Source: Ostreococcus lucimarinus
Lineage: Eukaryota
DNA: 64,000 bases
Assembly (NCBI GenBank): GCA_000092065.1
Contig: CP000581.1
Direction: 5' to 3' (one strand)
Positions within the stretch are counted from its first letter, which is position 1; the number at the start of each line of letters is the position of its first letter. The translations under genes and the position numbers were made by a program. Shown here piece by piece: positions 1 to 64,000 of this stretch. Below the pieces are notes generated by a model that saw only the letters and a program-made list of their open reading frames with translations, did no database searches and was not told the origin of the DNA.

Positions 1-217
1 TCGCGTTCGCCGTGTGACACGCGAGCAGGATGTGATTCCTCGGCTGCACCCTCCACGCGAACCGCATGAACAGCCCGGAGTACACCACCAGCGCGCCCGT
101 CATCGGTCCGCTGATCATCGACTCCGGCTTCTTCGTGTCCGCCAAGCCCTGCGCCCGTCGCGCGGCGTCGCGCCGCCGTCGTCAGTCGCCGCGTCCGTCG
201 CTTCGCGTCCGTCGCTT

Positions 218-265
<48 letters not shown>

Positions 266-471
266 CCGGTCGTCGTCGTCGTCCCGGTCGTCGTCGTCGT
301 CCCGGTCGTCGTTCGACGCGCGTCGTCCGTCGTCGTCCGACGCGCGTCGCGCCGTCGTCCGATGCGCGGCGACGGACGCACCGCGAGCACGAACCCCCAG
401 TTCGCGACGGGCCCCCAGAAGTGGGTCGTCCTCGGCCCCGTGGGGCTGTTGATGAAGGCGCGCACGCTCAT
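1..471 (-). CDS. MPC: mitochondrial pyruvate carrier (MPC family). C-terminus runs off the window start. Two exons: complement(join(<1..148,382..471))
   Basis: Minus-strand translation from ATG 471..469 gives [30 protein letters not shown], which contains the MPC signature FWGPVANWG. After a GTGCGT donor at 381 and a CAG acceptor at 149, a second frame continues [49 protein letters not shown]. This matches MPC1 ([40 protein letters not shown]). Unspliced, the frame reads into a poly-Thr/Arg tract. Confidence 0.8.
149..381 (-). other. inferred spliceosomal intron of MPC (233 nt, GTGCGT...CAG) that contains the (GTC)n microsatellite
   Basis: Splicing is required to join the two homology-supported MPC segments. 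Donor consensus matches the other introns in the window. Confidence 0.7.
221..312. repeat. (GTC)n trinucleotide microsatellite interrupted by CCCG; about 18-bp higher-order unit
   Basis: Direct reading: gtcgtcgtcgtcgtc...cccggtcgtcgtcgtcgtcccggtcg. Confidence 0.9.
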
Positions 472-1268
472 GGCGCGGCACTGTGCGGCGATGCCGACGC
501 CGGCGAACGACCGCGACGTCGTGCGCGTGCGCGCGACGCCGCGCTCGAGCGGGTGCGACGTCGTCCGGTGGAGCGCGTGCGGAGACATCGCGTGCGCGGC
601 GCGGCGCGGCGCGGTGGTCGCGGTGCGCGCGACGCGACGCTCGAGACGGAACGCGAACGAAGCGAATCGACCAAAGACTGACGACGCGCGCCGACGACGA
701 CGACGCGCAGCGGGATGGATTCGACGCGACGGAGCCGGGGATGGAGTGCGCGACGTTCGATGCGTCGCGCGAGGGAAACGCGCGAGCGTCGGAGGCGCTG
801 AGACACGGATTGGAGGCGGCGAAGAGCGCGCGGCGGTTGGACGCGAGCGGGACGACGACGCACCGGTTCGGGGAGACGCGCGCGGGAGGAAACGATGGCG
901 CGAACGCGGAGAAAAGCGCGCGGGCGCTCGATTGGTCCGCGGTGGGGGCGATGGGGTGCGGCGAACGGTGCGCGCTGGCGATGTGCGCGACGGATGGGAC
1001 GTGCGAGGCGTTCGCGCCGCCGGAGACGGAGGCGACGAGCGCGTGGAGGCGAGCGGTTCGTTTGAGCGACGCGTGGGGCGACGCGTGCGCGAGCGATGGG
1101 TACGCGCGAGCGCGCGATGACGTCGTGGGCGTCGTCGCCGAGGTAGGGCTAGAGGTGAAGCGGGATGAGGATTGTTTCGAGCGCGCGGCGGAAGTCGCCG
1201 CGAGACGCGCCGCTGAAGACGCGAGCGGCTCGGATGCGAAGCGAGTGAAGGAAGAAGATCCGAAACCG

Positions 1269-3062: not shown

Positions 3063-3065
3063 CGA

Positions 3066-4253: not shown

Positions 4254-4404
4254 AACGACGTCCACGGCGCGTTTCAAACATTCCGGTCACGCGTCGTTCC
4301 ATCCTTCCGCTCGATCGCCGTCATCGACCCCCATCGTCGCTCGCTCGCCTCGCCGCTCGCCGCGCCGCGTCCGCACAAACCGTCGCCCGTTCGCGACGAT
4401 CGCG

Positions 4405-6175
4405 ATGACCGCGTCGAGCATGGACGTCGACGCCGACGCGTCGACCAAAGAAAACGTCGAACCGAGCGACGCGAACGCGCGTCGCGCGGACGTCGCGCAC
4501 CGGGTACGCGTCGTCGACGGTGCACGCGACGCGACGTCGCGTCGTCGAGATCGATCGCGACGCGCGGCGCGTCGTCGTCGAACGCTTTTCGATCGAGCGC
4601 GCGCGATGACGGCGGACTGACGACGCGTTCGACGGACACAGCTCGCGGGATGCGTGCGCGACGTGCAGAAATCGGTAGAGGCGAAGGGCGAGGCGAGATT
4701 CGTCGCGAGAGCGCTGCGAGAGGTGCGAGACGGCGACGCGCGAGGCGAGGCGAGGCGAAGACGCGAGGCGGACGCGGAAGAAACGACCGAGCGATGACTG
4801 ACGGTGCGCGCGCGCGCGGTGGATGACGTAGACGGCGATGGTGCGACGAGAGCTCACGAGCGAGAACGTGCGCGCGTTCGTGGGCGCGGTTTTGCCGGAG
4901 GAGAGCGCGGCGCGAGCGGCGCTCTTGGCTCGATGCGAGACCAAAGCGGCGGGAAGACAGACGAGAGGGAAGAGCGCGGGGACGAAGGGCAAGGGCGGCG
5001 AAAGCGATGATGCGGTGGTAGACTTAAGCGACGTTGCGCCGTGTGCGCTTCCAGAGGCGGAGGTGTACGCGTACTTGGTAGTTTTGATGCACTTGATTGA
5101 CGGCGAGCGAGGCGAGGACGCGCTCGAGTGCGCGCGAGAGGCGGTCGATAGAATCAAGCAGTTTAACCGTCGATCGATGGATGTGCTCGCGGCGAGAGTG
5201 TACTTTTACTACTCACTCGCGTACGAGAGATTTGGATCGCTCGAAGACGCGCGCGCGACGCTTCTGGCGCTGTATCGGACGTCGGCGCTGCGCCTGGACG
5301 AAATCGGCCAAGAAACTTTGGTCAACTTGCTGTTGCGCAACTACTTGCACTACAACCTTTACGACCACGCGGAAAAGCTTCGATCGAGGGTGACGCTGCC
5401 GCAATCGCGATCGATTCAACAGCAGTGCCGTTACGCGTACTACCTCGGTCGCATTCGCGCCGTGCAGTTGGAATACAGCGAGGCGAAGGAGTACCTGACG
5501 CAGGCGTACCAAAAAGCGCCGACGGGGGCGAAGGGGTTCCGTCTCGAGCTGTTGAAGTGGATCACCATCGTTCGAATGCTTTTGGGAGAGATTCCCGAGC
5601 GAAAGGAGCTGACTCAGCCGGAGATGCGCGCGGCCTTGGCACCGTATTTCGATCTCGTCCAGGCGGTGCGCATGGGCGACTTGACCGCGTTTCAACGCGC
5701 GGCGGAGACGCACGGGACGACGTTTACCGAAGACAAGTTGTCCAACTTGATCAACCGCTTGCGCGCGAATGTCATTCGAACCGGGCTCACGCGTATTAAC
5801 ACTGCGTACTCCAAGATTTCCCTCGCCGACGTGGCCGAGAAGCTCGGTTTGCCGAGCGTGGAGGACGCGGAATCCGTCGTCGCGAAGGCGATTCGCGACG
5901 GCAACGTCGACGCCGTCATCGATCATTCGGCCAAGGTGATGTATAGTAAGGAGACCACAGACGTCTACAGCACGCAAGAACCGCAAAGTGCGTTCCACGT
6001 GCGCATCGCGTTTTGCTTGGACACGCACAACGAAGCCGTCAAGGCGATGCGTTACCCGCCCAAGGAGAAGGCGAAAACCGCCGACGCGCTCGCGTCGCGC
6101 GGCGTCGACAACGACGCCTCAGGATTAGATCTCGCGGATTTCGACGACGACTACGACGATATGGACTTCTTCTAG
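4405..6175 (+). CDS. RPN3: 26S proteasome regulatory subunit RPN3/PSMD3 (PCI domain). Two exons: join(4405..4503,4832..6175)
   Basis: Exon 2 (ORF 4838..6175) aligns along its length to plant RPN3 (LLNLLLRNYLHYNLYDxAEKLRS...QLEYSEAKE...IRDGNVDAVIDH...DFDDDYDD). An in-frame TAG sits immediately upstream of the ATG at 4838, and the ORF lacks the conserved N-terminal helix. Exon 1 (ATG 4405, MTASSMDVDADASTKENVEPSDANARRADVAHR, donor GTACGC at 4504) spliced to the TAG acceptor gives ...RRADVAHRTAMVRRELTSENVRAFVGAVLP. This matches Arabidopsis RRIARAVRLTVGLRRKLTGSVISSFLDFALVP. Confidence 0.8.
4504..4831 (+). other. inferred intron of RPN3 (328 nt, GTACGC...TAG)
   Basis: See the RPN3 entry: phase-0 junction restores the conserved N-terminus. 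Confidence 0.6.
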
Positions 6176-7773: not shown

Positions 7774-8169
7774 CTCGCTCGCAGTTCCGATCGTCGCGCC
7801 GGATCGGGCGCCCGTCCTCGTCGCGCGCGCCGACCGCCGACTTTCGTCGGGGGAACTTAAATCGCCAATTCATCATTCGCCGCACACGTCGACGCCATGT
7901 CCGCGCCCTCGCCCGCGCGCGACGCCGACGACGCGCGCTCGCCCGTCGCCGTGACGCCCGAACCGACGACGACGTCGCGCGACGCCGCCGCCGACGACGC
8001 CGACGACGCGCGCGCGCGAACGCCGACGACGCTCGCGGCGAGTTTCGACGCGATGACGCTGCGCGATCGCACGAACGACGCGACGACGAGGGAAACGAAA
8101 CACGCGCGCGCGTCGTCGCTCGGCGGGAAGAGGTGCGCGATCGATCGCGACGGGACACGACGACGCGCG

Positions 8170-8213
8170 ATGATTGATGATTGATGATGAATGATGAATG
8201 ATGAATGAATGAT
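8170..8213. repeat. (ATGA/ATGAATG)n simple repeat
   Basis: Direct reading: gatgattgatgattgatgatgaatgatgaatgatgaatgaatgatt. Confidence 0.85.
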
Positions 8214-8700
8214 TCGTCGACGACGCGCGCGGCGACTGACGACGACGCGCGAACGCCGGACAGATTCCACTCGCCCACGGACAGCGCGCTGAGCCCGGCG
8301 TCGAAATTCGTCGCGCGCAAGGCGCACCACGCGACGATCGCGATCGCGGATAAATCGCGCGCGGCGCCGCGTCCGGGCGTCGAAAACGCGAGCGAGGCGC
8401 CGCCGCGGTCGCGCTTCGCGCCCTCGTGATCGAACCGCCGCGACGGGCGCGGTCATTCTTTCCGACGCGTCGATCGATCGATCCGCGCGTCTTGTACATC
8501 ACACGCACATTATCTTTTCACGAGATCGCGTGATCGCGCCGTCGTCGTCCCGCGCGTCGGCGCCGCGCGCGTCCTCGCGTCTTCGCGTCTCGTCCGCGTC
8601 GACGCCGCGGGTTCGCTGTTTCCCCCGACGCGTTTCGATGGCGCCAGTCGATCGCGCGCGGCGCGTCGACGGCGAGCGTTCGGCGGACGCGCGCGCGGCG

Positions 8701-8825: not shown

Positions 8826-9126
8826 TTCATTGAATTCATCGCGAACGCGAACGCGACGCGATGCCGTACCTGGGCGGCGCGGTGGCGGCGAACGTGAACG
8901 ACGACGACGCGCTGGACGCGCGCCTGCACGCGAACGTCGCGATGCGACACGGCGGGGCGAGCCCGCTGAGGGTGGTGAAGTGCGTCGGCGAAGCGAAGCG
9001 CGCGAAGCGAAGGAAATCGAGCGAACGAAAGCGCGAAGCGACGCGACGACGCGAAGGGCGCGCGCGAGGTGACTGACGAGCGCACGTCGCGCGCGGTGTC
9101 GCAGGTTTCGAAGCGATCGGCGAGGG

Positions 9127-10668
9127 ATGCGAGCGAGAGGGCTGTGGACCAAGGTGCGAGTGGTGGTGATTCTCAATCAATTGCTCGGACGCGTGCGGCG
9201 GGGCGAGAAGTTTGAAAAGCTGCACGATAAGGATAAGCTTCTGATCGAGTTCGTGGGGGTGACGGGGAGGGATATTAGGGATGAGATTCGCCGCGTGCAG
9301 GAAAAGTTTAGCGCGCCGACGAAGAGAAAGACGCTGTTGGCTTTGACGCTCAGGCAAAAGGTTTATCTCGCGCTCACGGAGCCGTCGTCGGGAAGGCTGG
9401 CCTTGTCGATCAGTGCGTTGATGTTTACGTTGATTTTCGTGTCGATCAGCTCTTTCATCGCGAGTACAATGCCGGAGCACTCGGGGAAGGCGAGTTTGGA
9501 CATCATAGAGATGGTGTGTCAGCTGATCTTTTCTCTCGAGTACGCGCTGAAGATATGTTGCGCGCCAAAGCGGTGGATGGCGGTGAAGGACCCGCTCAAC
9601 TTGATCGACCTGGCGTCCATTATTCCGTGGTACGCCGAGATAGCGATTTCAGGCTTGCAATTTGGTTACGAGGGAGCGGAAAGCTCATCGTCGACATCCA
9701 GTGCGCGAGTTTTGCGAATCTTTAGACTGTTTCGCGTCATCAAGGTGTTCCGACTCGGTAGTCGGGCGAAGAAAATCCAAGTGGTCTTGATCGCCGTGCA
9801 AGACAGCGCGGACATGTTCGTCGTGCTAGGGTTTCTACTTGCTTTAGGACTGGTGATGTTCAGTGCGTTGATATACTTTGCCGAAAACGGACAAAGCCCG
9901 CCGACGAACGCGTGGGACGCCAACGAAGGCGACGAGTTTGATTCCATTCCGAGCGCGTTTTGGTGGTGCATGGTTACTTTGATGACCGTGGGCTACGGTG
10001 ATGCCGTGCCGACGACGATTTGGGGTAAATCTGTCGCGGCGATCACGATGTTAGGTTCCGTGGTGATCACCGCGCTCCCGATTTCTGTCATCGGCGCCAA
10101 CTTCACGCAGCAGTGGCTCGCGTTCAAGGCGAAGGAGCATCGCAAAGTTGTCAGGCTGAACATCAAAGATCATTCAGAGCTGCTGCTCAAAGAGATGTAC
10201 GCATACTCACAAGTGGTCAGCGCTTTGAGCGATCACATCAGCGCGATTCAGAACGCCATCATCCGCGAAGTTGGCGTCGTTCGCAAATTGCTCGACGACG
10301 TTCTGCAGATGGCGCCAACGTCTTCACAGGAGGAGGTCACGATACTTGCTCGCACGGTGGATTATCGTTTCAGCAAAATAGAAGACATGAAGGAGGAGCT
10401 AGAAGAATTAGTTGAGACTTATGACCTGGTGTCACACACGGAGTTTTCAGTTTCACTGCAAGAACTTAAGGCGATCGGGAACAAGATGCGAAAACTGGAG
10501 GAAACGGGCAGCTTGTTGGACGATGATGTAGAAACATTGGTGCAATCCACGTCGGCATTGCGCTCGCAGCTTGCCCGCGTGAAAGAAATTTTGGATCACA
10601 CGCGAAGCAACACTCCGATGACCAAGGCCGCGGAATTAGCGAGTGAGCCCGCACGGAGCGGGCTCTAG
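9127..10668 (+). CDS. voltage-gated K+ channel (6-TM Kv type) with a long C-terminal coiled-coil tail and no recognisable T1 domain
   Basis: S1-like RQKVYLALTEPSSGRLALSISALMFTLIFVSISSFIASTMPE. S4 RVLRIFRLFRVIKVFRLGSRAKK with Arg every third position. Pore/selectivity filter FWWCMVTLMTVGYGD. S6 AITMLGSVVITALPISVIGANF. Real ATG at 9127. Confidence 0.85.
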   Translation: MRARGLWTKVRVVVILNQLLGRVRRGEKFEKLHDKDKLLIEFVGVTGRDIRDEIRRVQEKFSAPTKRKTLLALTLRQKVYLALTEPSSGRLALSISALMFTLIFVSISSFIASTMPEHSGKASLDIIEMVCQLIFSLEYALKICCAPKRWMAVKDPLNLIDLASIIPWYAEIAISGLQFGYEGAESSSSTSSARVLRIFRLFRVIKVFRLGSRAKKIQVVLIAVQDSADMFVVLGFLLALGLVMFSALIYFAENGQSPPTNAWDANEGDEFDSIPSAFWWCMVTLMTVGYGDAVPTTIWGKSVAAITMLGSVVITALPISVIGANFTQQWLAFKAKEHRKVVRLNIKDHSELLLKEMYAYSQVVSALSDHISAIQNAIIREVGVVRKLLDDVLQMAPTSSQEEVTILARTVDYRFSKIEDMKEELEELVETYDLVSHTEFSVSLQELKAIGNKMRKLEETGSLLDDDVETLVQSTSALRSQLARVKEILDHTRSNTPMTKAAELASEPARSGL

Positions 10669-14800: not shown

Positions 14801-15727
14801 GTACACGTGTCTCCACACGAGCGGATGCGCGAGCCCGCTCAGGGCTTCGGCGCACTTGACCAACAAGCTCACCTGCTTGCTTCGCAACAGCAACCGACGC
14901 TCGCACGCGATCGCCGCGACACACTTGAACACAGTTCGCACGGGCAAACACCGCATCAGCGGCTCTTTACCGTCCGCAAACGCCTCGCGCGCGCCGTGAT
15001 CCGCCGCCCCCCGCGGCGGCACCGTCACCAACGCGCCGCCGATTGGAAACAAAACCGCGCGATCGCGTCGCCACATCAACCTATCCACCACCATCTCCGC
15101 GATCACGGACAGAACCGGTAGGTGCCCTCGCCCTGGCTTTCTAAAGTAAGCCTCGAACACGTGCTCCAACGCCTCCATCCACGCGTCCAGGCACGGCATT
15201 CGCGACACCAAACACACGCACGCCCGCGCGCGCGTCGCCCCCGCCGTCTCCCCGCTCATCGTCCTCAGGCTCCGCTCCGGCGTCGCCGCCACGAACGACA
15301 CGCACGCGACGTATATCCTATCCCCGTTTTCATCCGTCAGTATCGTCGGGTACCGAGTCGGATGTTCGTCGTCCGCGCGTTCGTCGTCGCCGTACGCGTC
15401 GACGCCTCGCGGCAGCGCCAGCGTCGCCAACTGCGCCGGGTACCGCGCGCTCGCCCGCGGGCACTCATCGAGCACGCCGGCGTGATACACCGTCCGCGTC
15501 CACTCGCGCGCGTCCGCCGTCGCCGCCGCCGTCGTCGCCGTCGCCGTTCCGCTCGCGATACCGTTGCTCGACGTCCCGACCCCTCGCGCGCGCGCGCGCC
15601 GCATCGCGCGCGGGTTCGGCGGCAACCCGCACACGACGAACGCGTCCACGCACGCGCCCGTCGTCGCGCGCGCGCGCCGCGCGTCGCCGTCGCCGTCCTC
15701 GTCGCCGTCGTCGCTCGCGCGCGTCAT
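11822..15727 (-). CDS. DENN-domain protein with C-terminal WD40 repeats (DENND3-like candidate Rab GEF)
   Basis: N-terminal uDENN/DENN-like region (RYPTILTDENGDRIYVACVSF...LPVLSVIAEMVVDRLMWRRDRAVLFPIGGALV). C-terminal WD repeats (GHVGGVTAFATRD, DGTVKLWDARQSD, LSGHLGDVTSLCVL). 1301-aa ORF. Start ATG 15727 lies only 18 bp from the divergent methyltransferase ATG, so the true start may be downstream (e.g. Met at about 15604). Confidence 0.7.
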   Translation of the reverse strand: MTRASDDGDEDGDGDARRARATTGACVDAFVVCGLPPNPRAMRRARARGVGTSSNGIASGTATATTAAATADAREWTRTVYHAGVLDECPRASARYPAQLATLALPRGVDAYGDDERADDEHPTRYPTILTDENGDRIYVACVSFVAATPERSLRTMSGETAGATRARACVCLVSRMPCLDAWMEALEHVFEAYFRKPGRGHLPVLSVIAEMVVDRLMWRRDRAVLFPIGGALVTVPPRGAADHGAREAFADGKEPLMRCLPVRTVFKCVAAIACERRLLLRSKQVSLLVKCAEALSGLAHPLVWRHVYIPCLPISMVDYLDAPMPFIMGATHDVDVDERALEGVTVVDLDTGSMRDGGEQILLPQESMLRDFIERVRKIIKPGIVDTDELDASMFVNWDADVNMRVTAVFTDFWYELLQLDSLHRYVVQDASGAAQLKKHDYRHEISRWRGAFTDQILETNAFLSLLDDASSLSRLGKSVAGDIGRKRRAKFRSTQLTGDSLVLPASIESRSTDSLLIPRLHISNFDDAQQSAKSMRSLSIYQKIEAKFMDSSPSLGGENVDKFNDVPVRDARSSTNSTLKRATWGWLKDRVRRRMGSDALPEERALAKAIQVAENADKAVNFDWYYNTLTKKDAASLADYIRSHRDDLDVLDDDEAIDTVEVPQDLQPSNDDDDVDEATALVYPIFTNHDDVVAAALAEHAATLNYIALLTGVKRHLISGTRRFNIVSIAISAAVLRADAAGDATSLAHAIRIVRTYQPSNTRTLWLKGAARWDAVNLWCGLFAVNTDVAWLHGTDAETRTSDLVRCFALVGLTSDQSSALLNEVMVRFDFEKMCSVEVDVSVGRALSASAYSTISFESWVEKLRQSSAFHFGANDRALHSYAPVQDCCPSDVIEAQIWDRSAITAMTVQSGVVSSLVALGSGRGDVAFFAPDSGVTTRSHSPQIHASPLSALTFIPRSAHAFCGRRDGVIETWDSVTGTRISIVPDAHRGETVSFVSPVVNQVISSAPLTASAGNDGTVKLWDARQSDATRAVSVIKGHVGGVTAFATRDARGGAVGSILTGDAAGVVRAWDPRYATAGPVSLAHAHQGRVTYLAPLRGSDSTASAGADGLVRVLRLDGDTGGDIRLSGHLGDVTSLCVLQDETRGREPVGIIASGSSDGELCLWSGGELVNDVRQAWRCVSKSRAHVGAVTCLTTEGSGRPKRTNSVNAGSSGKGVRDMEMKPLLSASTDCSFACWNLSTARLQGRRSSWSPVAMCAPPLKRSTSALCSVIEVSRNRYIYGDRFGMLSCVALPTPAA

Positions 15728-15745
15728 TCGTCGACGCGTCGACGA

Positions 15746-16591
15746 ATGACGACGCGCGCTCCGGACGACGGCGACGCGCGACGCGGTCGCTCGACGACGG
15801 GCGCGTCGTCGGACGCCTTCGTCGAGGGCGACGCGTTCGAGTACGCGCGCCGGACGACGGCGAACACGACGGGGCAGCTGACGTGGCCCGCCGCGCGCGC
15901 GCTCGCGGCGTTTCTCGACGCGAGCGACGCGCTGCGGCGCGCGCGCGAGGTGCTCGAACTCGGCAGCGGTAACGGTTGGCTCGGCCTCGCGGTGCTGCGC
16001 GCGCGCGGCGCGCGCGACGTGCGAGTGACGATGACGGAGACGACGGAAGGCGGCGCGCTGCGATGGCTCGAGGCGCGGGCGCGGGCGAACGCGGCGTGGG
16101 GACGGATCGAGGGCGACGACGGCGCGCGCGCGCGGTGTCGAGCGTTGAATTGGAACGCGTTTTCGTCCGACGCGGCGGCGAGCGACGCGGGCGACGCGGG
16201 CGACGGCGAGGAAGGCGCGAACGCGGACGCGAGGGGCTCGGCGAGGACGGAGGACGAGACGCCGCTCACGGCGGATTCGCCCGAACTCGCCGACGTCGAC
16301 GTCGTGCTCGGCGCGGATTTAGTGTACGACGACGCCGGTGTCGTCGCGCTTCCGCGCGTCGTCAAGGCGTTGCTCTCGCGCGCGCGGTCGGGTGCGGTGT
16401 TTTATTACGCGCACACCAAGCACAGATACGACGGGATGGATTTGGATTTTTTCGCGAACGTCTCGGCGAACGGGTTGACGTGCGAAGAGGTTCGCCCGCG
16501 CGGCGCCCCGAGTCCACCGCCGAGCCCACCGCCGTTCGAATCGTTATTTCCCGATCAGCGCATCGCTATTTATCGCATCGCGCTCGCGTAG
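15746..16591 (+). CDS. class I SAM-dependent protein methyltransferase, METTL21/FAM86 family (Methyltransf_16-like)
   Basis: FEYARRTTANTTGQLTWPAARALAAFLDA...VLELGSGNGWLGLAV matches the family-16 N-lysine methyltransferase motif (W.AA.LA.FL...VLELG.G.G..G). First real ATG is at 15746; the track ORF from 15122 is antisense to the DENN gene. Confidence 0.7.
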   Translation: MTTRAPDDGDARRGRSTTGASSDAFVEGDAFEYARRTTANTTGQLTWPAARALAAFLDASDALRRAREVLELGSGNGWLGLAVLRARGARDVRVTMTETTEGGALRWLEARARANAAWGRIEGDDGARARCRALNWNAFSSDAAASDAGDAGDGEEGANADARGSARTEDETPLTADSPELADVDVVLGADLVYDDAGVVALPRVVKALLSRARSGAVFYYAHTKHRYDGMDLDFFANVSANGLTCEEVRPRGAPSPPPSPPPFESLFPDQRIAIYRIALA

Positions 16592-17823: not shown

Positions 17824-18238
17824 CGCCGTAGCCCTTCGTTGTAGCTTGTAGCGGTTGTAGCGGCGAGCCTTTCGCCTCGAGAGATTTCGCCAAATCATGG
17901 TCGAGCCGCGTTTTTCGCCAAGTGATGGTAAAAACGGACCTCGCGGGACGGGGTCGCCTCCCGCGCGCTCGCATCCGCCTTTTCACGACGCACGCGAGAG
18001 AAGAGTACGTCACGACCGCCGACGCGCGCGCGCGAACGCAATCGAACCATTCGCGTCGCCTCGCGCGCGCTCGTGAAGCGACGCGTGGCGCGACCGACGC
18101 ACCGACCGCCGCGACGCACCGGGCCAAACCCCGAGCGCGCCGCGATCGCGCATCGCGCGTGAAACCTCTCGCGCGAGCGCGAGCGCGCGAACAAGAGACT
18201 GACGATCGACGCGCGCGTTTCGTTTTCATCATTCACAG

Positions 18239-19541
18239 TGTCTCATCGCAAGTTTGAACGTACGTGGCGACGCGAGGCGCGGCACGATGATCTCGGGACG
18301 CGATCGCGCAAAGCCCTAGCGGCGAAGGTGACCTCGCGCGACTCGACTCGGTGATGCGACGCGAACGATGACTGACGAAGACGTGTTGTGTGTGAAATAT
18401 AGACCCGCGTTACGGTAACCTCGGTTTCTTGCCGAAGAAGCGCTCGAAGCGCAGCCGGGGTAAGGTCAAGTCGTTCCCGAAGGATGACGCGAGCAAGCCG
18501 CCGCACCTCACCGCGTTCATGGGCTTCAAGGCTGGCATGACGCACATCGTTCGCGATGTCGATAAGCCCGGCTCGAAGATGCACAAGAAGGAAACGTGCG
18601 AATCGGTGACGATCATCGAGTGCCCGGAACTCATCGTGGTTGGCCTCGTCGGTTACGTGCGCACGCCGAAGGGCTTGCGCGGGAAGAAGACGGTGTGGGC
18701 CGAACACTTGAACGATGAAGTCCGCCGTCGATTCTACAAGAACTGGTTCAAGTCCAAGAAGAAGGCGTTCACCAAGTACACGAAGAACTACACCAACGGT
18801 TCCATCGACAAGGACTTGGACGAGCTCAAGAAGTCTTGCGACGTCATTCGCGTCATCGCGCACACGCAAGTGCGCAAGGTTTCAGGCTTGAAGCAAAAGA
18901 AGGCTCACATTATGGAGATTCAAGTTAACGGTGGTGACGTCGCCGCCAAGGTTGACTTTGGCTACGCTCTCTTCGAAAAGGCTGTGCCGGTCGACACCGT
19001 GTTCCAGCAAGACGAAATGATTGATCTCATCGGCGTCACGAAGGGTAAGGGTTACGAAGGCGTCGTCACCCGTTGGGGCGTCACCCGACTTCCGCGCAAG
19101 ACCCACAGAGGTTTGCGTAAGGTTGGTTGCATCGGTGCGTGGCACCCGTCGCGTGTTTCCTACACGGTTGCCCGTGCGGGTCAACACGGTTACCATCACC
19201 GTACGGAAATCAACAAGAAGGTGTACAAGATCGGCAAGGCTGGTCAAGACAGCTTCGGTGCGAGTACGTTCCACGACCCGACGGAGAAGGAAATCACCCC
19301 GATGGGTGGCTTCGCGCACTACGGTATCGTCAAGCACGACTACGTCATGATCAAGGGTGGTGTCGTCGGCCCGCGCAAGCGCTTGATCACGATGCGTCAA
19401 TCTCTCTTCAAGCAAACGCGTCGCGTCGCCACGGAGAAGATTACGCTCAAGTTCATCGACACCTCGTCCAAGTTCGGTCACGGTCGCTTCCAAACCTCCG
19501 AAGAGAAGGCGAAGGTTTTCGGTACGACGAAGCAAGCGTAA
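18239..19541 (+). CDS. RPL3: 60S ribosomal protein L3 (uL3). Spliced: micro-exon about 18239..18259 (TG TCT CAT CGC AAG TTT GAA C) plus main exon about 18402..19541. Initiator ATG not contiguous (see findings)
   Basis: Main ORF matches RPL3 almost end-to-end ([30 protein letters not shown]...[32 protein letters not shown]...). The track M is a TTG. Upstream, SHRKFE is encoded before a GTACGT donor, and the ATATAG acceptor restores [16 protein letters not shown], matching FSAPRHGSLGFLPRKR. Confidence 0.9.
18260..18402 (+). other. inferred intron of RPL3 (about 142 nt, GTACGT...ATATAG)
   Basis: Joins the conserved SHRKFE micro-exon to the main exon in frame. Confidence 0.7.
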
Positions 19542-19686
19542 GCTTCTTTGTCGTTCGCAATCGCTGGTTAGTCACGTTTGTTTTAATGTCGAAGACGCAT
19601 TTTTAGCTAAACATAATAAACTCCGAGGTCCCGGTCGGCGTCTCTGCGAACGCGCTTAAGTCGTTACGGTGGCTGATTCTCGAAGA

Positions 19687-20079: not shown

Positions 20080-20663
20080 CGTCGTCGGCTTTATCTATCC
20101 TTCGTTCGCCATCGCGCGCGCATCGTCAGTCGTTTTTCGCCTCCATCCGCGACCGCGTCTCGCCGCAATCCAATCAATCAATCTTTCGCCCGCGCCAACG
20201 TCACGCCCGATCGATCGTCCGCATCGCGTCCACCCGCGTCGTTTTTCGCGCGTTCGCTCGCGTCGTTCGCGCGCGTCTCGCCGCGATCGTTCGCGCGTCG
20301 CGCGCGCGCGTCGCTTCTTCGTCGTCGCTCGACGCACCGCGTGGATCAGTGGCGCTCGCGCGTGTCGTCGCCATCGTATCTTTCCCGTCCGCGCGGGTCT
20401 CGCGGGGGTCGTTCGCGAGTCACGAACGGCGAAACCGGGGACTCCTCGAATTATACACACGGAACACACGCGTCGTCCGCGGTCGGTCGACCCATCGCGC
20501 GCCGCGCACCGCGACGCGCGCGCGCGCGCGATCCGCGCGCGGACGAACGGGTCGTCGCGATCGCGATCGCGCGCGCGCCGGCGTCGCGACGCGATCGCGG
20601 ACGCGCGCGGCGAAGAAGCGCGATCGATCGGCGCGCGGTGGTTAGCGAGGCGGCCGGGAGGCG

Positions 20664-30588: not shown

Positions 30589-30984
30589 ATGACGGCGACG
30601 AAGGAAAAGGCCATCATCAAGGCGGCGGACATGCCGGACGTGCGTGTCGGCGATCGCGACGCGCGCCGACGCGCCGACGCGCCGACGCGCCGACGCGACA
30701 AAGTCAACGAGAACGATGACGACGACGAACGCGACGACTGACGACGCGAACGCGCGCAGGACATCCAAGACGACGCGGTGACGGTGTCCATGGAGGCGAT
30801 GGAAAAGTTCAACGTCGAGAAGGACATCGCGGCGCACGTGAAGAAGGAATTCGATAGAAAGCACGGCCCGACGTGGCACTGCGTCGTGGGGAGAAATTTT
30901 GGAAGTTACGTCACGCACGAGAGCGGACACTTCATCTATTACTACATAGCCAACGTCGCGTTTTTGTTGTTTAAAGCGGGCTAG
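30589..30984 (+). CDS. DYNLL: dynein light chain LC8 (DYNLL). Two exons: join(30589..30639,30760..30984)
   Basis: Exon 2 ([74 protein letters not shown]) is near-identical to LC8. Its frame has an upstream stop and no ATG. Exon 1 (ATG 30589, [17 protein letters not shown], donor GTGCGT at 30640) reproduces the LC8 N-terminus MCDRKAVIKNADMSEE. Confidence 0.85.
30640..30759 (+). other. inferred intron of LC8 (120 nt, GTGCGT...CAG) containing a (GCGCCGAC)4 octamer repeat
   Basis: Unspliced read-through hits TGA. Splicing gives a full-length LC8. Confidence 0.75.
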
Positions 30985-31127: not shown

Positions 31128-32469
31128 TTACAGGACGAATTTGCGGCGACAATGTCTCGTGCCGTCGGTGTCGGTGCTTCGAACGTACTCGTACTCGCCG
31201 TGCTTGCTGTCGAAGGTGCCCTTTTGTACGGACATCAGTCGAAGCGTGAATCGCGGTCCGAGCTCTTGCAATCGGGCCTGAATCATCGTGTTTACGGGCG
31301 GTGGCTTCTCCGCATCTTCATCCTCGTCGCTATCTTCATCAGCACTATCTTCATCGTCTTCTTCTTCGCTATTATCGTCGTCATCCATCTCTATGCTCTT
31401 TCTCTTTTTGGATGAGCGCTTCCCTCTACCCTCCTTCATAGAATCGCGCACGTGATCGGGAACCTCCGCGGTCGCTAAGTGTCCCGCGTGCGGTAACCGA
31501 CGACCCTTCTTTTCTTCAAACACGTAGCGATGATGTCTGAAGAATATGAAATCGCGTTGATTGTGAAACGTCACCACGCGTCGGCCTTTGAATTCGGGCT
31601 TTTGCGGAAACACCGACGCAAACATTCTCGACACTCGGTGCCCTAATCGCGTGCTAAAGTTGTTTAAAATCAACTCCGGGTAATGACTCGTTGCCCTCCC
31701 GTGACCTTTGATCTCCTTCGACAACTTGAGAGAAGAGAGCTTGTACAAGCACGTTGGTCCTTCGGGAAGGTGGACGTGCAACATCCCGTTTACTCTCGCG
31801 CCTTTGCTAAATTTTTTATTCTCGTTAAACACCAACACATCCGTGAACCCTCTCGCCGTGCCATGCTTCACGATCTCTTTGACCTGATAATTCCTTCGCG
31901 CGTAGTAATACGCGTTCGGGATCACCGTGAACAAATTCTCCAAAAACTTGAACATGTCCCCGCTCGGCTTTCGGCTCGTCGTTATGATAATTTTCGGCGA
32001 CGTCGCCTGACTGAAATACGACGCAAACTCATCCTCTGCGTCCTGTTCGACCACGTCCACGTCGTTTAAATCATCAATATGCGTCGCATCGCGCACTCTT
32101 TGATTCTCTATCGTCTTCGGGATCTGTCTCGGCGCCGGTTCTTCGCCCGCCTCGAGCGCGGCGGCTTCGGCTTTCTGTCGCGTCTCCCTGCGTTGCTTCT
32201 TCGCCACCGCGCGTTCGTGTCGAAGTTTGCCGTACACCTCGCTTCTTCGCTGTTTATTCTTTATTCCAGACGTCAGCGATCCGACCGTCTCCGCGCCGTC
32301 ATCGTCCCTGCGCGTCGCGTCGCGTCGTCGTCGTCGTCAGTCGTCGCGTCGTGGCGGCGGCGGCGCATTCAACGCGCGCGCATCGCGCGTCGAGGACAGT
32401 GCGCGGGCGCGCGCGAACGCACCCGGTGAAACGTTTAGTCTTCTTCTTCACCGCGGCGACGCGACCCAT
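31128..32469 (-). CDS. RPF1: ribosome production factor 1 (RPF1, Brix domain). Two exons: complement(join(31128..32307,32423..32469))
   Basis: Brix domain and C-terminus match RPF1 (ITTSRKP...RLGHRVSRMFASVFPQKPEFKGRRVVTFHNQRDFIFFRHHRYVFEE...LGPRFTLRLMSVQKGTFDSKHGEYEYV). The track ORF starts on a GTG with the conserved IKNKQRR in frame upstream and no ATG. Exon 1 (ATG 32469, MGRVAAVKKKTKRFTG, donor GTGCGT) joins at phase 2 to the CAG acceptor before GDDDGAETVGSLTSGIKNKQRRSEVYGKLR. Confidence 0.8.
32308..32422 (-). other. inferred intron of RPF1 (115 nt, GTGCGT...CAG)
   Basis: See the RPF1 entry. Confidence 0.65.
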
Positions 32470-34123: not shown

Positions 34124-34336
34124 CGTCACCGCGCGCGCGCGTGTGCGCAAACAGTGACGCGATGTTTACGGACGGCGACTCGCAAACACCCGGGTGTGAG
34201 GGGGGGGGACGAAACGAGACGTCGAACGCATCGACGACGCGCAATCGTCGACGCGCGCGACCGAACGAACGCGCGAACGCGCGAACGCGCGCGCGCGAAG
34301 ACGGACGGACGCGAACGCGGGGCGTCGACGCGCGCG

Positions 34337-38467: not shown

Positions 38468-39373
38468 ATGACGCCCGCGCGACGGCGGCGCGTCGTCGTG
38501 TTCGGAGACTCGCTCACGCAGCGTTCGTTCGAGCCGCACGGGTTCGGCGCGGCGCTGGTGCGCGACGGCGACGCGAAGACGATGGATTCGAACGCGCGAT
38601 GTCGCGACGACGACGCGCGCGACGACTGACGCGCGCGACGACGACGGCAGGCGAATCGGTACGCGCGCACGTGCGATGTGTTCAATCGCGGGTACGGGGG
38701 GTACAACTCGCGATGGTGCGCGCGCGAGGACGTCCTGGACGGGGCGTTCGCGGCGGACGCGCGGCGCGAGGGGCGGACGTTTCTGGCGACGGTGATGCTG
38801 GGGACGAACGACGCGACGCGAATGCGCGACGCGACGGCGGAGCGAACGAACAGGGTGAGGGTGGAGTTGGAGGAGTACGCGAAAAACATGCGAACGATCA
38901 TCGCGCGGGCGGTGGAGACGTCGGAGATCGTGGTGGCGATGACGCCGCCGGCGGTGGACGAACGACGACGCGTCGAGGCGCAACGCGAAAGATGGGGGGA
39001 GGACTGGGTCGGAGGACCGTTCGAGGATCATCGACCGGACGTCGAGGCGTACGGGAAGGCGCTCGTGGACGTGGTGCGCGAATTTCAGGAACGTCGACAT
39101 CGCGTCTACGCGTTGGATTTGTACGCGGAGACGCGCGCGGCGATGGAGCGCGGCGCGGTTTTGTTTGAAGACGGCGTGCACTTCGGCGAGGACGGACAAC
39201 GATTCGTGACGGAGAAGTTATTTCAAGTTTTAGATAGTTTGGATGCGGATCCTTCGGTGCCAGACTTTCCGTACGGGCACGAGATTCGAAACCCAGAGCG
39301 TGCGGCGATGAGCGCGGAAGAAGTGTTTGACGATCACGAAGCGAGACGTCCGAAAGAAGCGCTGGAACCTTGA
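38468..39373 (+). CDS. IAH1: SGNH/GDSL hydrolase, isoamyl acetate-hydrolysing esterase IAH1-like. Two exons: join(38468..38557,38651..39373)
   Basis: Exon 1 (MTPARRRRVVVFGDSLTQRSFEPHGFGAAL, GDS(L) motif, donor GTGCGC). Exon 2 (ANRYARTCDVFNRGYGGYNSRWC...GTNDA...DGVHFGEDG). The join reproduces IAH1 [41 protein letters not shown]. The two halves are in different frames in the ORF track (38036..38629 and 38678..39373). Confidence 0.8.
38558..38650 (+). other. inferred intron of IAH1-like esterase (93 nt, GTGCGC...CAG)
   Basis: Phase-0 splice joins the GDS block to the CDV.NRG..GY.TRW block. Confidence 0.7.
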
Positions 39374-61110: not shown

Positions 61111-61240
61111 TACCACGCACGTCGAAACTTTAGCACAACCACACGATTGCAACGATCACGTATTACCACTATCGACGCGCGTCTCCGCCGTCCGCGCTGG
61201 CCCCCTCATCCGCCACCGTCATCCGCACACCACCGCGCGT

Positions 61241-62410
61241 TTGCCCGACATGTTCCGCCGAGCCGGCGACAAATTTGCCGCGCGAACCGCGCGCGCGACG
61301 TTCGCGCTCTTCGGCGACGTCACCGCGTCCACGCGCGTTCCGCGCGCGTCGTCTCGCGCGCGACGGTTCGCCCAACCGTCAGCCATCGCCATCGCGCGCG
61401 AATTCGCCGACGACGCGCACAATCGCGTGCGCTACCCTTCGCCCGAGGTGAAGATCGGCCAGCCCGCGCCGCAGTTCGATTCTCCCGCGTGCGTCGACGG
61501 CGATCTCGGCCGGGTGAAGCTGAGCGATTACCTCGGGAAGTATTGCGTGGTGTTCTTCTACCCGCTCGACTTTACGTTTGTGTGCCCGACGGAGATCACG
61601 GCGTTTAACGATCGCGCGGATGAATTCGAAGCGCTGAACACGAAAGTGATAGCGGTGTCGACGGATAGTGAGTACTCGCACTTGGCGTGGACGATGATGG
61701 AACGCGAACGAGGCGGTTTGGGGGCGATGCGGATACCGATCGTGAGCGACCGGACGAAGGAGATCAGCGCCAAGTACGGAGTGCTGTTCGAAGACCGAGG
61801 AATTGCGCTGAGAGGGCTGTTTATCATCGACGACGAGGGGATCGTGCAGCAGATCACGATGAATAACTTGCCCGTGGGGCGGAGCGTGGACGAGACGCTG
61901 CGGCTCGTGCGAGCGTTTCAGTACACGGCGGAACACGGCGAGGTGTGTCCGGCGGGATGGACGCCCGGTGCGCCCACGATGATCGATGATCCTGAAAAGT
62001 CCAAGACGTATTTCGAGCAACACGCTGGCGCGCCAAGTGGGGGATCGTCTTCAAGCGGCGGTTCGTCGAACGGCGATTTCGCCGCCAAGCTCACGCCCAT
62101 CGCGTCGCGCGCAGACTTCAACGCCTTGATCGCTGGACCCAAGCCAGTCGTCGTTGATTTCATGGCGAGCTGGTGCGGCAAGTGTCGACAAATCGCCCCG
62201 GAGGTCGACAAGCTCATCGATCAGTACCCGGATGTCGTCTTCGCGAAATTCGACACGGCGCACGCGGATTTGGCGCCTCTCTCCAAGGAGTTGGGCATCG
62301 AGGCCATGCCGACTTTCAAGTTTTACAAGGACGGCAAAGAAGTCAACGAAGTGATCGGTTACAAGCCTAAGCTCTTGCGCGACGCCGTTGTTGATTTCGC
62401 GGGCCATTGA
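61241..62410 (+). CDS. typical 2-Cys peroxiredoxin (AhpC/BAS1 type) with transit peptide, fused through a Gly/Ser linker to a C-terminal thioredoxin domain (WCGKC)
   Basis: Prx: [14 protein letters not shown] (peroxidatic Cys) ... [13 protein letters not shown] (resolving Cys). Linker [16 protein letters not shown]. Trx: [22 protein letters not shown]...[22 protein letters not shown]. One continuous ORF. Real ATG. Confidence 0.85.
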
Positions 62411-62440
62411 GACAATTATTTTACAAAACAGTTCCTATCG

Positions 62441-63613
62441 CTAAACGCGCGCTTTTGATTCCACCTCCACCGTGCTTCCATTCGTCGCCCGTGTGTGCTT
62501 GATGACCACACTTTCACCACGCTCGCGCGCTACTCTGACGTTCATCCAAATCTCGAATGCGAGTGCGAGGCGACGTTGCGTCGGCGCGTCGCGTTCCGCC
62601 CGAGCTGGATCTACTCTAACGATCTCGTCGACGTCGCACTGTTCGTGGATAAACGATTTAATGCTCGCAAAAACGTCGCCATCGCGTGGAAACGCACAAA
62701 TCATCGTGTCGAACACGAATCTGTAGTACGACCACAGCGCCTCGTGTCCCGGGTATTGGCGTATGAGGTGACGCGACAATTCGTCTTCATAGAGTACAAT
62801 CGAACGACGATCCGCCGGCCGCGCGCCCAACGCGCGCTTGACGATGTGCGACCGGTAGTGCAACGCGCAATGATCGCTCACGCTCGTTCGCACGCGGCGT
62901 TCGTTTTCACAGAGCTCTTGATCTAACAACTCCCGACGGTTCGGCAAAAGGCGCCGCAGCGCCCACGCGCGATGCGACCACGCCGCGTAATTCAATCTCT
63001 TCTTCAACACCGCCGCGTCGCACGCCCGGCACTCTTCTCGAAACGTTTCTAGCGCCCACGCGTCCTTTTTCGACCCATCACCAATCACCGCCGCGCGCGC
63101 GGCGTCGATCACCCATCGCCGGTGCGCCCAAGCGCTCGGCGCCTTTGGAAATCGACTCTGCACCGCGCGCGCAAACGCCAACTCATCGCGCGCGCCTTCC
63201 ACCAATCCGTCCCGCTCGCGCGCGCTCATCTTCTCGACGCCGTCGAATCGCGCCTTCATCGTTCTCTTTCGCGCGTTCCACGCCGTGGCGTGATCGCCGT
63301 TCGCGCACAGCGCCGTCGCCGCCGCGTCGAAATCCGCGTCGTCGTCGTCGCCCTCCCATCGCCTCGCCGACGCCTCGCGCACGCCCACGACGGCGTCGTG
63401 CGACATCACCAGCGCGTCGCCGCACGCGTAAAACGCGTCCGGCATTCGCGACGCGTTCTCGTCGCCTCGCGTCGTTCCGAACAGCGCCGCTCGCGACACG
63501 TCCGGCGCGTGTTCGACGCTCCGCACCGCGCGCGTCCCGCTCGCGTCGTCGCGCGCGCCGAGCAATCGATCGAGCTCGATCGCCATCGCCGTCGCGCGCG
63601 CGCTCGGCGCCAT
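62441..63613 (-). CDS. protein prenyltransferase alpha-subunit repeat (PPTA) protein; FNTA/PTAR1-like
   Basis: Repeated W..R.W motifs typical of PPTA repeats (NYAAWSHRAWALRRLL, SAWAHRRWVIDAA, EALWSYYRFVFD). Confidence 0.55.
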   Translation of the reverse strand: MAPSARATAMAIELDRLLGARDDASGTRAVRSVEHAPDVSRAALFGTTRGDENASRMPDAFYACGDALVMSHDAVVGVREASARRWEGDDDDADFDAAATALCANGDHATAWNARKRTMKARFDGVEKMSARERDGLVEGARDELAFARAVQSRFPKAPSAWAHRRWVIDAARAAVIGDGSKKDAWALETFREECRACDAAVLKKRLNYAAWSHRAWALRRLLPNRRELLDQELCENERRVRTSVSDHCALHYRSHIVKRALGARPADRRSIVLYEDELSRHLIRQYPGHEALWSYYRFVFDTMICAFPRDGDVFASIKSFIHEQCDVDEIVRVDPARAERDAPTQRRLALAFEIWMNVRVARERGESVVIKHTRATNGSTVEVESKARV

Positions 63614-63668
63614 CGCGCCGCGCCGCGCGCCGCGCGGTGCCGCACATCGCGCCCGGCCGGGCCGGCGC

Positions 63669-63993
63669 GATGCCGCGGCCGCATCGCGCGCGCGGCGTCG
63701 CGCTCGCCGCGCTGCTGACGCTCGCGCGCGCGTCGCGCGTCGCCGCCGACGTCGCGGTGCGCGACTTCGCGCAGACGGGGACGTCGTGGACGTTCCAGGG
63801 CGTCGCCGCGCCGGCCAAGTCGAGCGAGGCGAGCGACGCGCACGCGCTGCGGGTGACGCCCGCGCGCGCGAACGCGGCGGGAAGCGCGTTCGCGACGAGC
63901 AAACAGCTCGTCGGCGGTGGATTCGTGGCGGAGTTCGCGTTCGCGATCACGACGCCCGCGAACGTGGAGGTGCCGTGCGAGGGGGTGGACCAC
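63669..63993 (+). CDS. secreted L-type (legume-like/ERGIC-53/VIP36-like) lectin-domain protein, 3'-truncated by the window end
   Basis: ATG 63669; signal-peptide-like MPRPHRARGVALAALLTLARASRVAA. Then SWTFQG...ALRVTPARANAAGSAFATSKQLVGGGFVAEFAFAITTP matches the L-type lectin N-terminal pattern (W.FQG...LRLTPD...GS.W....F.F.V). Not in the ORF track because it has no stop within the window. Confidence 0.5.
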
Positions 63994-64000
63994 GCGCCGG

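Follow-up and report, generated by a model that had tools for sequence, protein, structure and literature searches.

Ten short GT-AG introns, distributed over eight genes, were found in the 64-kb stretch of Ostreococcus lucimarinus DNA analysed here (the window, which holds ~36 genes), and it is almost certain that they are ordinary U2-type spliceosomal introns. All ten begin with GT and end with AG, are between 93 and 234 nt in length and fall in about the first 80 codons of the host gene. Their removal leaves a continuous conserved reading frame, as seen from the coverage of Pfam profiles, from alignments with homologues and from exact matches to public proteins, and for each of the eight genes either homology is restored or the intron structure is conserved. 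Four of the introns, those of LC8 and RPF1 and the two of RPL3, are precisely missing from transcript-like contigs. The other six (in MPC, the esterase, the ion channel and a small gene, with two in RPN3) would be expected to be removed in vivo as well, with the spliceosome as the likely agent for all ten.

The window is nuclear DNA from chromosome 1, or the same region of a near-identical strain, of a genome that is gene-dense and intron-poor; the O. lucimarinus genome was reported by Palenik et al in 2007. In genes of this kind a short 5′ exon, carrying the ATG and conserved N-terminal residues, would be spliced onto a long main ORF. Unspliced read-through would run into a stop, often the TGA within the branch motif itself, or would shift the frame.

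Splice signals

Three signals are present in all ten introns: a GT[GA]CG donor, the branch site GACTGACG and a YAG acceptor, with the branch-site A positioned 18–36 nt from the acceptor. These signals, which are unusually uniform, are presumably those by which the introns are recognised. Seven donors are GTGCG[TCA] and the remaining three are GTACG[TC], a spread that fits the strong, though not invariant, GTGCGTG consensus of the introns of O. lucimarinus that lie outside chromosome 2. That consensus was derived from EST-confirmed introns, of which 87% contain ACTGAC and 66.5% the full GACTGACG (Irimia & Roy, 2008, PMC2483917). On chromosome 1, introns were found in 19 of 146 EST clusters, and the mean size of an intron is 188 bp (Lanier et al, 2008, PMC2367439). 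Public ESTs of the species number about 17,600–19,200.

Searching for a donor, ACTGACG and YAG at the right spacing gave 14 matches in the window, against 3.1 ± 1.7 (maximum 8) in 200 first-order Markov simulations of it. ACTGACG by itself is not enriched in the window (15 observed, 11.3 ± 3.2 expected). Ten of the 14 matches are the introns described here, two are clearly spurious and two are candidate 5′UTR introns. The central proposal of an earlier, sequence-only reading is right: these are real short GT-AG introns, placed close to the 5′ ends of genes that are otherwise free of introns. The donor and acceptor strings are as it described. It had listed seven spliced genes. Six of these stand (MPC, RPN3, RPL3, LC8, RPF1 and the esterase), an Ohr-type peroxidase was not detected, and two genes with introns, the ion channel and the small gene, had been missed. 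The range of lengths that it gave, 93–328 nt, contracts to 93–234 nt, as the 328-nt RPN3 intron is made up of two introns and an exon.

Introns missing from transcript-like contigs

LC8 and RPF1 are neighbours on opposite strands:

30589..30639 (+), LC8 dynein light chain exon 1
30640..30759 (+), LC8 intron, 120 nt, GTGCGT...GACTGACGA...CAG, phase 0
30760..30984 (+), LC8 exon 2, Pfam Dynein_light
31128..32307 (−), RPF1 (Brix domain) exon 2
32308..32422 (−), RPF1 intron, 115 nt, GTGCGT...GACTGACGA...CAG, phase 2
32423..32469 (−), RPF1 exon 1, encoding MGRVAAVKKKTKRFTG

The LC8 intron is exactly missing from eight contigs deriving from eight samples (L008–L015), with flanks that are 99.2–100% identical to the window. 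The spliced product of 91 residues is an exact match to XP_001415389.1 of O. lucimarinus CCE9901, and positions 1–86 of the Dynein_light profile are covered only by this spliced form. The RPF1 intron is missing from L009 and L011 and retained in L008. For both genes the junctions are where they had been predicted, 30639/30760 and 32307/32423 (−) respectively. Population variants in two further contigs (L004 and L005) are too few to inform, amounting to a single SNP (esterase intron) and a deletion of 3 nt (RPF1 intron).

RPL3 contains two introns, the first of which splits the start codon:

17993..18004 (+), 3′ end of RPL3 exon 1, 5′UTR and the A of the ATG; contig L016 reads CGCGAGAGAAGA joined to TGTCTCAT...
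18005..18238 (+), RPL3 intron 1, 234 nt, GTACGT...GACTGACGA...CAG, start codon split A/TG
18239..18259 (+), RPL3 exon 2, a 21-nt micro-exon
18260..18402 (+), RPL3 intron 2, 143 nt, GTACGT...GACTGACGA...TAG, phase 1
18403..19541 (+), RPL3 exon 3, with the CDS ending at 19541

Intron 2 is missing from all four of the mRNA-length contigs (L016–L019), which are 1215–1229 nt long and start 1–11 nt upstream of the ATG; three of the four share a 3′ end at 19598. Only L016 extends far enough into the 5′UTR to resolve intron 1, which is missing there, and the split ATG. The other three start with (A)GATGTCT, consistent with removal of intron 1. The spliced protein of 386 residues is identical to XP_001415385.1 of O. 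lucimarinus CCE9901. An RPL3 intron had been predicted at about 18259/18402; the intron is real, with the junction one base away at 18259/18403. The non-ATG start that had been assigned to this gene is replaced, on the evidence of L016 and the identity with XP_001415385.1, by an ATG split by the upstream intron at 18005–18238. No snoRNA or other RNA was detected inside the introns by Rfam or tRNA scans, even when the RPL3 introns were scanned under relaxed settings.

Junctions supported by homology and by conserved intron structure

Pfam profiles are covered from position 1 for the esterase and LC8, from position 3 for MPC and from position 9 for RPN3 only once the introns are removed. In two contigs from related species (L020 and L023) the position, phase and signals of the introns in MPC, RPN3 (both introns), the ion channel and the small gene are kept while their interiors have diverged with indels. 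The genes in this group that had been recognised previously are as follows:

1..148 (−), MPC exon 2, running off the start of the window
149..381 (−), MPC intron, 233 nt, GTGCGT...GACTGACGA...CAG, phase 0
382..588 (−), MPC exon 1, conserved MPC sequence from the ATG at 471
4405..4503 (+), RPN3 exon 1, ATG at 4405, 33 codons
4504..4641 (+), RPN3 intron 1, 138 nt, GTACGC...GACTGACGA...CAG, phase 0
4642..4722 (+), RPN3 exon 2, 81 nt, encoding LAGCVRDVQKSVEAKGEARFVARALRE
4723..4831 (+), RPN3 intron 2, 109 nt, GTGCGA...GACTGACGG...TAG, phase 0
4832..6175 (+), RPN3 exon 3, Pfam TPR_PSMD3_N, PCI and Rpn3_C
38468..38557 (+), GDSL/SGNH (IAH1-like) esterase exon 1, carrying the GDS block
38558..38650 (+), esterase intron, 93 nt, GTGCGC...GACTGACGC...CAG, phase 0
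38651..39373 (+), esterase exon 2

Homologues of MPC and the esterase were obtained with a chimeric protein query made from five junction-spanning N-termini. The predicted MPC junction, 148/382 (−), holds: spliced MPC matches positions 3–77 of the Pfam MPC profile in one stretch (101.9 bits), and over the junction its identity to plant MPCs is 74–76%. The exon 1 peptide MSP[HL]ALH...SHP is kept in L020 with synonymous changes, and an in-frame upstream ATG at 588 is likewise conserved. The intron in L020 retains its donor, branch site and acceptor but differs in length and has a diverged interior. The MPC intron of the window carries a (GAC)n microsatellite. For the esterase, the junction at 38557/38651 was also correctly placed; splicing restores positions 1–37 of the Lipase_GDSL_2 profile and the homologues P0181 and P0192 cross the junction free of gaps. 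Exon 1 presumably supplies the catalytic serine, as we read the SGNH family.

RPN3 had been modelled with a single intron, 4503/4832. This skips an 81-nt exon and deletes 27 conserved residues; the true structure has two introns. Exon 2 aligns to an N-terminal block that is conserved in every full-length homologue, is kept in L020 and L023 as a separate block flanked by GT and AG, and adds positions 9–27 of the Pfam profile and 14 bits to the match when included.

The structures of the two genes that had been overlooked are:

7897..8132 (+), small-protein gene exon 1
8133..8263 (+), small-protein gene intron, 131 nt, GTGCGC...GACTGACGA...CAG, phase 2
8264..8429 (+), small-protein gene exon 2, FHSPTDSALSPASKFV..., a motif kept in L023
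8861..8979 (+), ion-channel exon 1
8980..9104 (+), ion-channel intron, 125 nt, GTGCGT...GACTGACGA...CAG, phase 2
9105..10668 (+), ion-channel exon 2, Pfam Ion_trans and Ion_trans_2

The peptide encoded by exon 1 of the ion channel has homology to the N-termini of related channels (P0206–P0209), in which this region is uninterrupted, and in L023 an intron is found at the same position and phase with the signals GTACGC...ACTAACG...TAG. A search for genes that lack an ATG is not sufficient to find such introns: that of the ion channel was missed because the downstream ORF happens to begin with an ATG. The small-protein gene belongs to no Pfam family and its junction-spanning N-terminus, as part of the chimeric query, returned no homologue. 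Its intron is also at the same position and phase in L023, with a GTACGC donor, a CTGAC branch site and a CAG acceptor; in the window this intron holds an AT-rich microsatellite. Exact k-mer searches of metagenome contigs gave no matches for the ion-channel junction or for the junction between exons 2 and 3 of RPN3, a result that carries no information, since any variant would escape such a search and both genes may be weakly expressed.

Candidate introns and genes with no intron

The two candidate 5′UTR introns and the peroxidase of the window are listed below:

623..710 (+), candidate 5′UTR intron of a WD/beta-propeller gene, GTGCGC...GACTGACGA...CAG, acceptor 4 nt upstream of the ATG at 714
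20095..20337 (−), candidate 5′UTR intron of a CAAD-domain gene, GTGCGT...GACTGACGA...TAG
61250..62410 (+), AhpC/TSA peroxiredoxin–thioredoxin fusion, the only peroxidase in the window, with its own ATG at 61250

All three signals of the candidate at 623..710 are at the matching place in L020, and its upstream exon would overlap exon 1 of MPC on the opposite strand. Within the possible intron at 20095..20337 is a (GATT)n repeat that is polymorphic in length. This intron is made less likely by an upstream ATG, out of frame, at 20374, and a search for transcript contigs of the CAAD gene returned genomic contigs alone. Two intron-like matches were rejected. That at 15318..15395 (−), in the DENN gene, is read as coding because it encodes ...YPTILTDENGDR, which we take to resemble the conserved uDENN motif, followed by IYVACVSF; the block that follows is kept in L023. 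The match at 24732–24930 (−) was discarded because it lies within the ORF beginning at 22574, on the antisense strand. Hidden 5′ exons had also been suspected in the gene at 22.6 kb, the DENN gene and the giant gene, but these have in-frame ATGs of their own at 22574, 15727 and 58307 respectively.

No Ohr/OsmC gene was detected in the window in non-exhaustive checks by Pfam, tblastn and six-frame inspection. The OsmC family is absent from the precomputed Pfam matches, for gene calls covering about 283–62,337, and from our own Pfam scans, which included unannotated ORFs. With approximate sequences of OsmC from E. coli and Ohr from Xylella as tblastn queries, the best E-value for OsmC among the matches listed was 0.66, and nothing was seen on visual inspection of the six-frame fragments in all unannotated segments. 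The gene that had been called Ohr-type is probably the AhpC/TSA–thioredoxin fusion. This scores 148.9 bits for AhpC-TSA (cut-off 26) and 80.5 bits for Thioredoxin, the latter C-terminal, and also matches 1-cysPrx_C; the ATG at 61250 is followed by a targeting-like peptide and there are no intron signals.

Discussion

The contigs from which introns are missing (L008–L019) might be genomic DNA of strains or species without these introns, in which case they would give no direct evidence of splicing. Intron presence does vary, the orthologues of the ion channel, the esterase and MPC from related Ostreococcus lineages being uninterrupted (P0207, P0192 and P0180, on ENA contigs of 102, 107 and 6 kb respectively), and L008–L015 also carry neighbouring genes. 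However, both flanks of each junction in L008–L019 are 99.2–100% identical to the window and the missing piece is exactly GT...AG. The RPL3 contigs, moreover, have the size of an mRNA, start just before the ATG and in three cases out of four end at one base. L008, in which the LC8 intron is gone while the RPF1 intron on the opposite strand is kept, is what would be expected of a read-through transcript and not of a genome, and overlapping transcripts have been documented in O. lucimarinus (PMC2367439). A genomic origin therefore seems very unlikely, and from their structure we infer that L008–L019 derive from RNA.

Still less likely, in our view, is that the introns are copies of a mobile family, like the introner elements of Micromonas, rather than unrelated old introns. 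Their signals are extremely uniform, the GC-rich sequences around their branch sites are similar and their presence differs between close relatives, all of which such a family could explain. Yet an all-against-all comparison of the ten introns gave matches of at most 38 nt, confined to the branch motif or to (GAC)n-type low complexity, with no similarity over the full lengths of 93–234 nt. Hardly conceivable is the idea that the split ORFs are pseudogenes, sequencing frameshifts, non-ATG starts or sites of programmed frameshifting, although several main ORFs do start at GTG or TTG in the mechanical ORF list. RPL3, RPN3, LC8 and RPF1 are essential, conserved genes, the sequence is identical in independent assemblies (L001–L007 and L024–L029), every interruption is bounded by the three-part signal in a structure that relatives keep, and four of the interruptions are precisely missing from the transcript-like contigs. 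Ordinary spliceosomal introns remain by far the best explanation.

The introns share their GTGCG(T) donor, (G)ACTGAC(G) branch site, similar lengths and low density with the introns outside chromosome 2 of the same organism (PMC2483917, PMC2367439). There is no difference in kind, though three of the ten donors read GTACG in place of GTGCG; both the intron class and the signals have been in the literature since 2008 and are biologically nothing new. As in hemiascomycete yeasts (GTATGT...TACTAAC...YAG), introns are few, with near-invariant 5′ splice and branch sites, a branch site kept within a limited distance of the acceptor and a strong bias to the 5′ ends of genes. Yeast introns also occur in ribosomal-protein genes, some of them at or next to the start codon, as seen here for RPL3. 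Unlike those of the yeasts, the introns of the window have the consensus GTGCGT and ACTGACG, are 58–76% GC and have no obvious polypyrimidine tract, and an independent, convergent origin has been argued (PMC2483917). The introns of the ‘outlier’ region on Ostreococcus chromosome 2, which share the same genomes and spliceosome, are numerous and weakly marked: their donors are GTRNGT, and only 4.6% share a branch 6-mer (PMC2483917); none of the ten resembles this class. Introner elements, likewise, vary in presence between close relatives, but they form repeated families that are alike along their length, while the ten introns have only their signals in common. Micromonas is a lineage related to Ostreococcus.

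For annotation, the warning that prokaryote-style gene calling would truncate these genes is borne out by calls on public metagenome and SRA-assembly contigs, which give 370 residues in place of 386 for RPL3, 61–68 in place of 91 for LC8, 445 in place of 507 for RPN3 and 231 in place of 270 for the esterase. Such calling, applied to picoeukaryote metagenome DNA, clips conserved N-termini; looking for ORFs that lack an ATG is not enough to find the introns responsible, and the three-part scan (GT[GA]CG, GACTGACG, YAG) recovers those of the window well. The exact spliced RPL3 and LC8 proteins were found in a protein collection that holds the reference proteins of the species, and full-length exact matches to spliced RPN3, RPF1, the esterase, the ion channel and the small protein were not. 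Some public gene models for these five may for this reason differ from ours. It is possible, though we would place it slightly short of likely, both that several public models are incomplete (the candidates being the 81-nt exon of RPN3, the first exon in each of RPF1, the esterase and the ion channel, and the small protein with its two exons) and that the introns of MPC, the esterase and the ion channel, present here and missing from the uninterrupted orthologues, reflect recent gain or loss. If so, these three introns would record gains or losses that can be dated, in a genome whose splice signals hardly vary.

Short introns of the window

The window, with a GC content of 51-67% and both strands dense with long ORFs, is found in independent assemblies (L001-L007) at 99.3-100% identity. 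Exact look-up showed spliced RPL3 (386 aa) to be XP_001415385.1/ABO93677.1 and spliced LC8 (91 aa) to be XP_001415389.1, both of Ostreococcus lucimarinus CCE9901. These matches, together with the assemblies, identify the source as nuclear DNA of O. lucimarinus, a picoeukaryotic green alga, gene-dense and intron-poor. Ten introns were counted in eight of the approximately 36 genes, all within roughly the first 80 codons of the gene. No RNA genes were found inside them.

Introns and associated exons
381..149 (-), MPC intron, 233 nt
4504-4641 (+), RPN3 intron 1, GTACGC...CAG
4642-4722 (+), RPN3 exon 2, 81 nt, encodes LAGCVRDVQKSVEAKGEARFVARALRE
4723-4831 (+), RPN3 intron 2, GTGCGA...TAG
7897-8132, 8133-8263, 8264-8429 (+), exon, intron and exon of a small unknown gene
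8861-8979 (+), ion-channel upstream exon
8980-9104 (+), ion-channel intron, phase 2
18005-18238 (+), RPL3 intron 1, GTACGT...GACTGACGA...CAG
18260..18402 (+), RPL3 intron 2, 143 nt
30640..30759 (+), LC8 intron, 120 nt
32422..32308 (-), RPF1 intron, 115 nt
38558..38650 (+), GDSL/IAH1-like esterase intron, 93 nt

Microsatellites are present in the MPC intron, as (GAC)n, in the small-gene intron, as ATGATTG/ATGAATG repeats, and in the LC8 intron, as CGCGCCGA repeats.

A sequence-only reading had proposed short GT-AG introns in seven genes; the observation is largely real and its interpretation right in principle, though several specifics were wrong. On direct reading of the sequence, five of its six junctions hold and four are exact to the base: MPC 148/382(-), LC8 30639/30760, RPF1 32307/32423(-) and esterase 38557/38651. 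The RPL3 intron placed at about 18259/18402 exists, though the next exon begins at 18403, one base away from this approximate figure. The single 328-nt intron proposed for RPN3 (4503/4832) is wrong, the span being two introns around an 81-nt exon. This exon is supported by alignment to full-length RPN3/PSMD3 homologues, several from transcriptome assemblies, where it matches a conserved N-terminal block. With the exon included, the Pfam TPR_PSMD3_N score rises from 168.3 to 182.6 bits and the match covers profile positions 9-219 instead of 28-219. It is also kept as a separate GT/AG-flanked block in the related species L020 and L023, where the changes within it seem by eye to fall mostly at third codon positions and the introns on either side have diverged, indels included. 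The exon 2-exon 3 junction k-mer was not found in metagenome contigs.

Three further introns had escaped that reading. The first, RPL3 intron 1, splits the start codon, its A closing exon 1 and a 21-nt exon 2 opening TG TCT CAT... The ion-channel ORF (9127-10668) opens on an ATG, yet an exon and intron lie upstream; the spliced N-terminus, ...ASPLRVVK|FRSDR..., aligns without gaps to related channels (P0206-P0209) whose N-termini are uninterrupted, and L023 has an intron of identical position and phase (GTACGC...ACTAACG...TAG). The ion-channel junction k-mer of the window was not found in metagenome contigs. The small-gene intron is likewise kept in position and phase in L023, as is the exon-2 motif FHSPTDxALSPASKFV. 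The genes suspected of hiding further 5' exons, namely the gene at 22.6 kb, the DENN gene and the giant gene, have ATGs of their own at 22574, 15727 and 58307.

Evidence of splicing

Intron-less contigs were obtained by exact look-up of the spliced proteins and aligned to the window; from their structure, set out below, we infer that L008-L019 are assembled mRNA. In LC8 the contigs L008-L015, one from each of eight samples, pass directly from 30639/30640 to 30760, and two of them (L009 and L011) skip the RPF1 intron as well. L008 lacks the LC8 intron and keeps that of RPF1 on the opposite strand, as would a read-through transcript. RPL3 intron 2 is missing from four mRNA-length contigs (L016-L019, 1215-1229 nt), three of which end at position 19598. 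L016 alone, reading CGCGAGAGAAGA|TGTCTCATCGCAAGTTTGAAC|ACCCGCG, confirms RPL3 intron 1 and the split ATG, the 5'UTR of L017-L019 being too short to resolve that junction.

For the other six introns (MPC, two in RPN3, esterase, ion channel and small gene) the support is indirect, coming from Pfam matches restored on splicing, collinear homologues and structure kept in relatives. Esterase profile coverage is 1-177 when spliced versus 38-177 unspliced, the part regained being what we take to be the GDS catalytic block of the SGNH family, and the MPC profile is covered in one stretch (3-77) only after splicing. Homologues of the junction-spanning proteins are collinear across the splice sites, and intron structure is kept in L020/L023.

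Splice signals and chance

All ten introns begin GT[GA]CG and contain GACTGACG, whose A lies 18-36 nt before the 3' terminus of the intron; the acceptor is CAG in eight and TAG in two. Chance levels were set by 200 simulations of the window. ACTGACG by itself is not enriched (15 observed versus 11.3 +/- 3.2 expected), whereas the complete signal of donor, branch motif and acceptor is (14 versus 3.1 +/- 1.7, simulation maximum 8), so that the intron observation is far beyond chance. Nor are the introns introner-like repeats: unlike introner elements, they share only signals and low-complexity sequence.

Four of the 14 matches lie outside the ten introns. One is within DENN coding sequence and encodes ...ILTDENGDRIYVACVSF, which resembles the conserved uDENN motif, and one is antisense within an ORF; both were rejected. 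The remaining two are candidate 5'UTR introns, plausible but unproven: 623-710, upstream of the WD gene, where all three signals recur at the corresponding place in L020, and 20337-20095(-), upstream of the CAAD gene, for which an out-of-frame upstream ATG is awkward. A (GATT)n tract within the latter (20150-20200) differs in length from one metagenome contig to another (L024-L029).

The peroxidase and neighbouring genes

The seventh gene proposed, an Ohr-type peroxidase with an intron, was not found. Ohr/OsmC is absent from precomputed Pfam matches on gene calls over almost the whole window and from additional Pfam scans of window sequences, and tblastn with E. coli OsmC and Xylella Ohr queries gave a best OsmC E of 0.66 among the matches listed. 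The only peroxidase found in the window is an AhpC/TSA-thioredoxin fusion (61250-62410 (+)); it needs no intron. In the mechanical list its ORF opens on a TTG, three codons upstream of its own ATG. The protein has a targeting-like N-terminal peptide, AhpC-TSA and 1-cysPrx_C domains, a Gly/Ser linker and a C-terminal thioredoxin domain.

In MPC a second in-frame ATG lies upstream, at 588 (-), 39 codons ahead of the conserved sequence (471). The N-terminal peptide MSP[HL]ALH...SHP is kept in L020 with synonymous changes, and thus translation of MPC may begin at 588 and add a presequence-like extension. The 790-aa ORF 33752-36124 probably starts at ATG 34345 (595 aa), as called in L004, and not at 33752, because L004 and L005, two near-identical strains, have frameshifting indels (2, 1 and 5 nt) in 34150-34345. 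The divergent DENN/WD40 (-) and Methyltransf_16 (+) genes have start codons only 18 nt apart (15727-15746; 61 nt in L023), so promoters and 5'UTRs must overlap the neighbour's coding sequence.

The giant ORF (47280-58307 (-)), which encodes 3675 aa, falls where GC is lowest and AT skew is strong, and tandem repeats inside it have periods of ~408 nt and ~885 nt. Metagenome contig L006 (99.7-99.9% identical) is without ~3.8 kb of it (52227-56037), the protein called there being 1600 aa, either through assembly repeat collapse or real copy-number variation. A single intronless ORF (39475-42282 (-)) encodes, in a eukaryote, a 935-aa protein with bacterial-type polyphosphate kinase 1 domains (PP_kinase_N, PP_kinase, PP_kinase_C_1, PP_kinase_C). 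At 63670-64000 (+) an ORF with a signal-peptide-like start (MPRPHRARGVALAALLTLARA...) continues past the window end.

Discussion

Such introns have been described before, and splicing of RPL3 and of LC8 gives public protein records exactly. For O. lucimarinus introns that are confirmed by ESTs and lie off chromosome 2, the published 5' consensus is the atypical GTGCGTG, with ACTGAC in 87% and GACTGACG in 66.5% (Irimia & Roy, PMC2483917); the ten introns are textbook members of this class. On chromosome 1, 19 of 146 EST clusters have introns, of mean length 188 bp, and transcripts that overlap are also recorded (Lanier et al., PMC2367439).

The MPC, esterase and ion-channel orthologues P0180, P0192 and P0207, from related Ostreococcus-like lineages, are uninterrupted exactly at the intron sites of the window. 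P0207 lies on a 102-kb contig, so it is genomic and without that intron, and the P0192 contig also exceeds 100 kb. The MPC and ion-channel introns are kept in L020 and L023, a pattern indicating that introns were gained or lost between closely related lineages. Prokaryote-style gene calls on such contigs clip conserved proteins, and the splice models derived here may disagree with public gene models in some cases.
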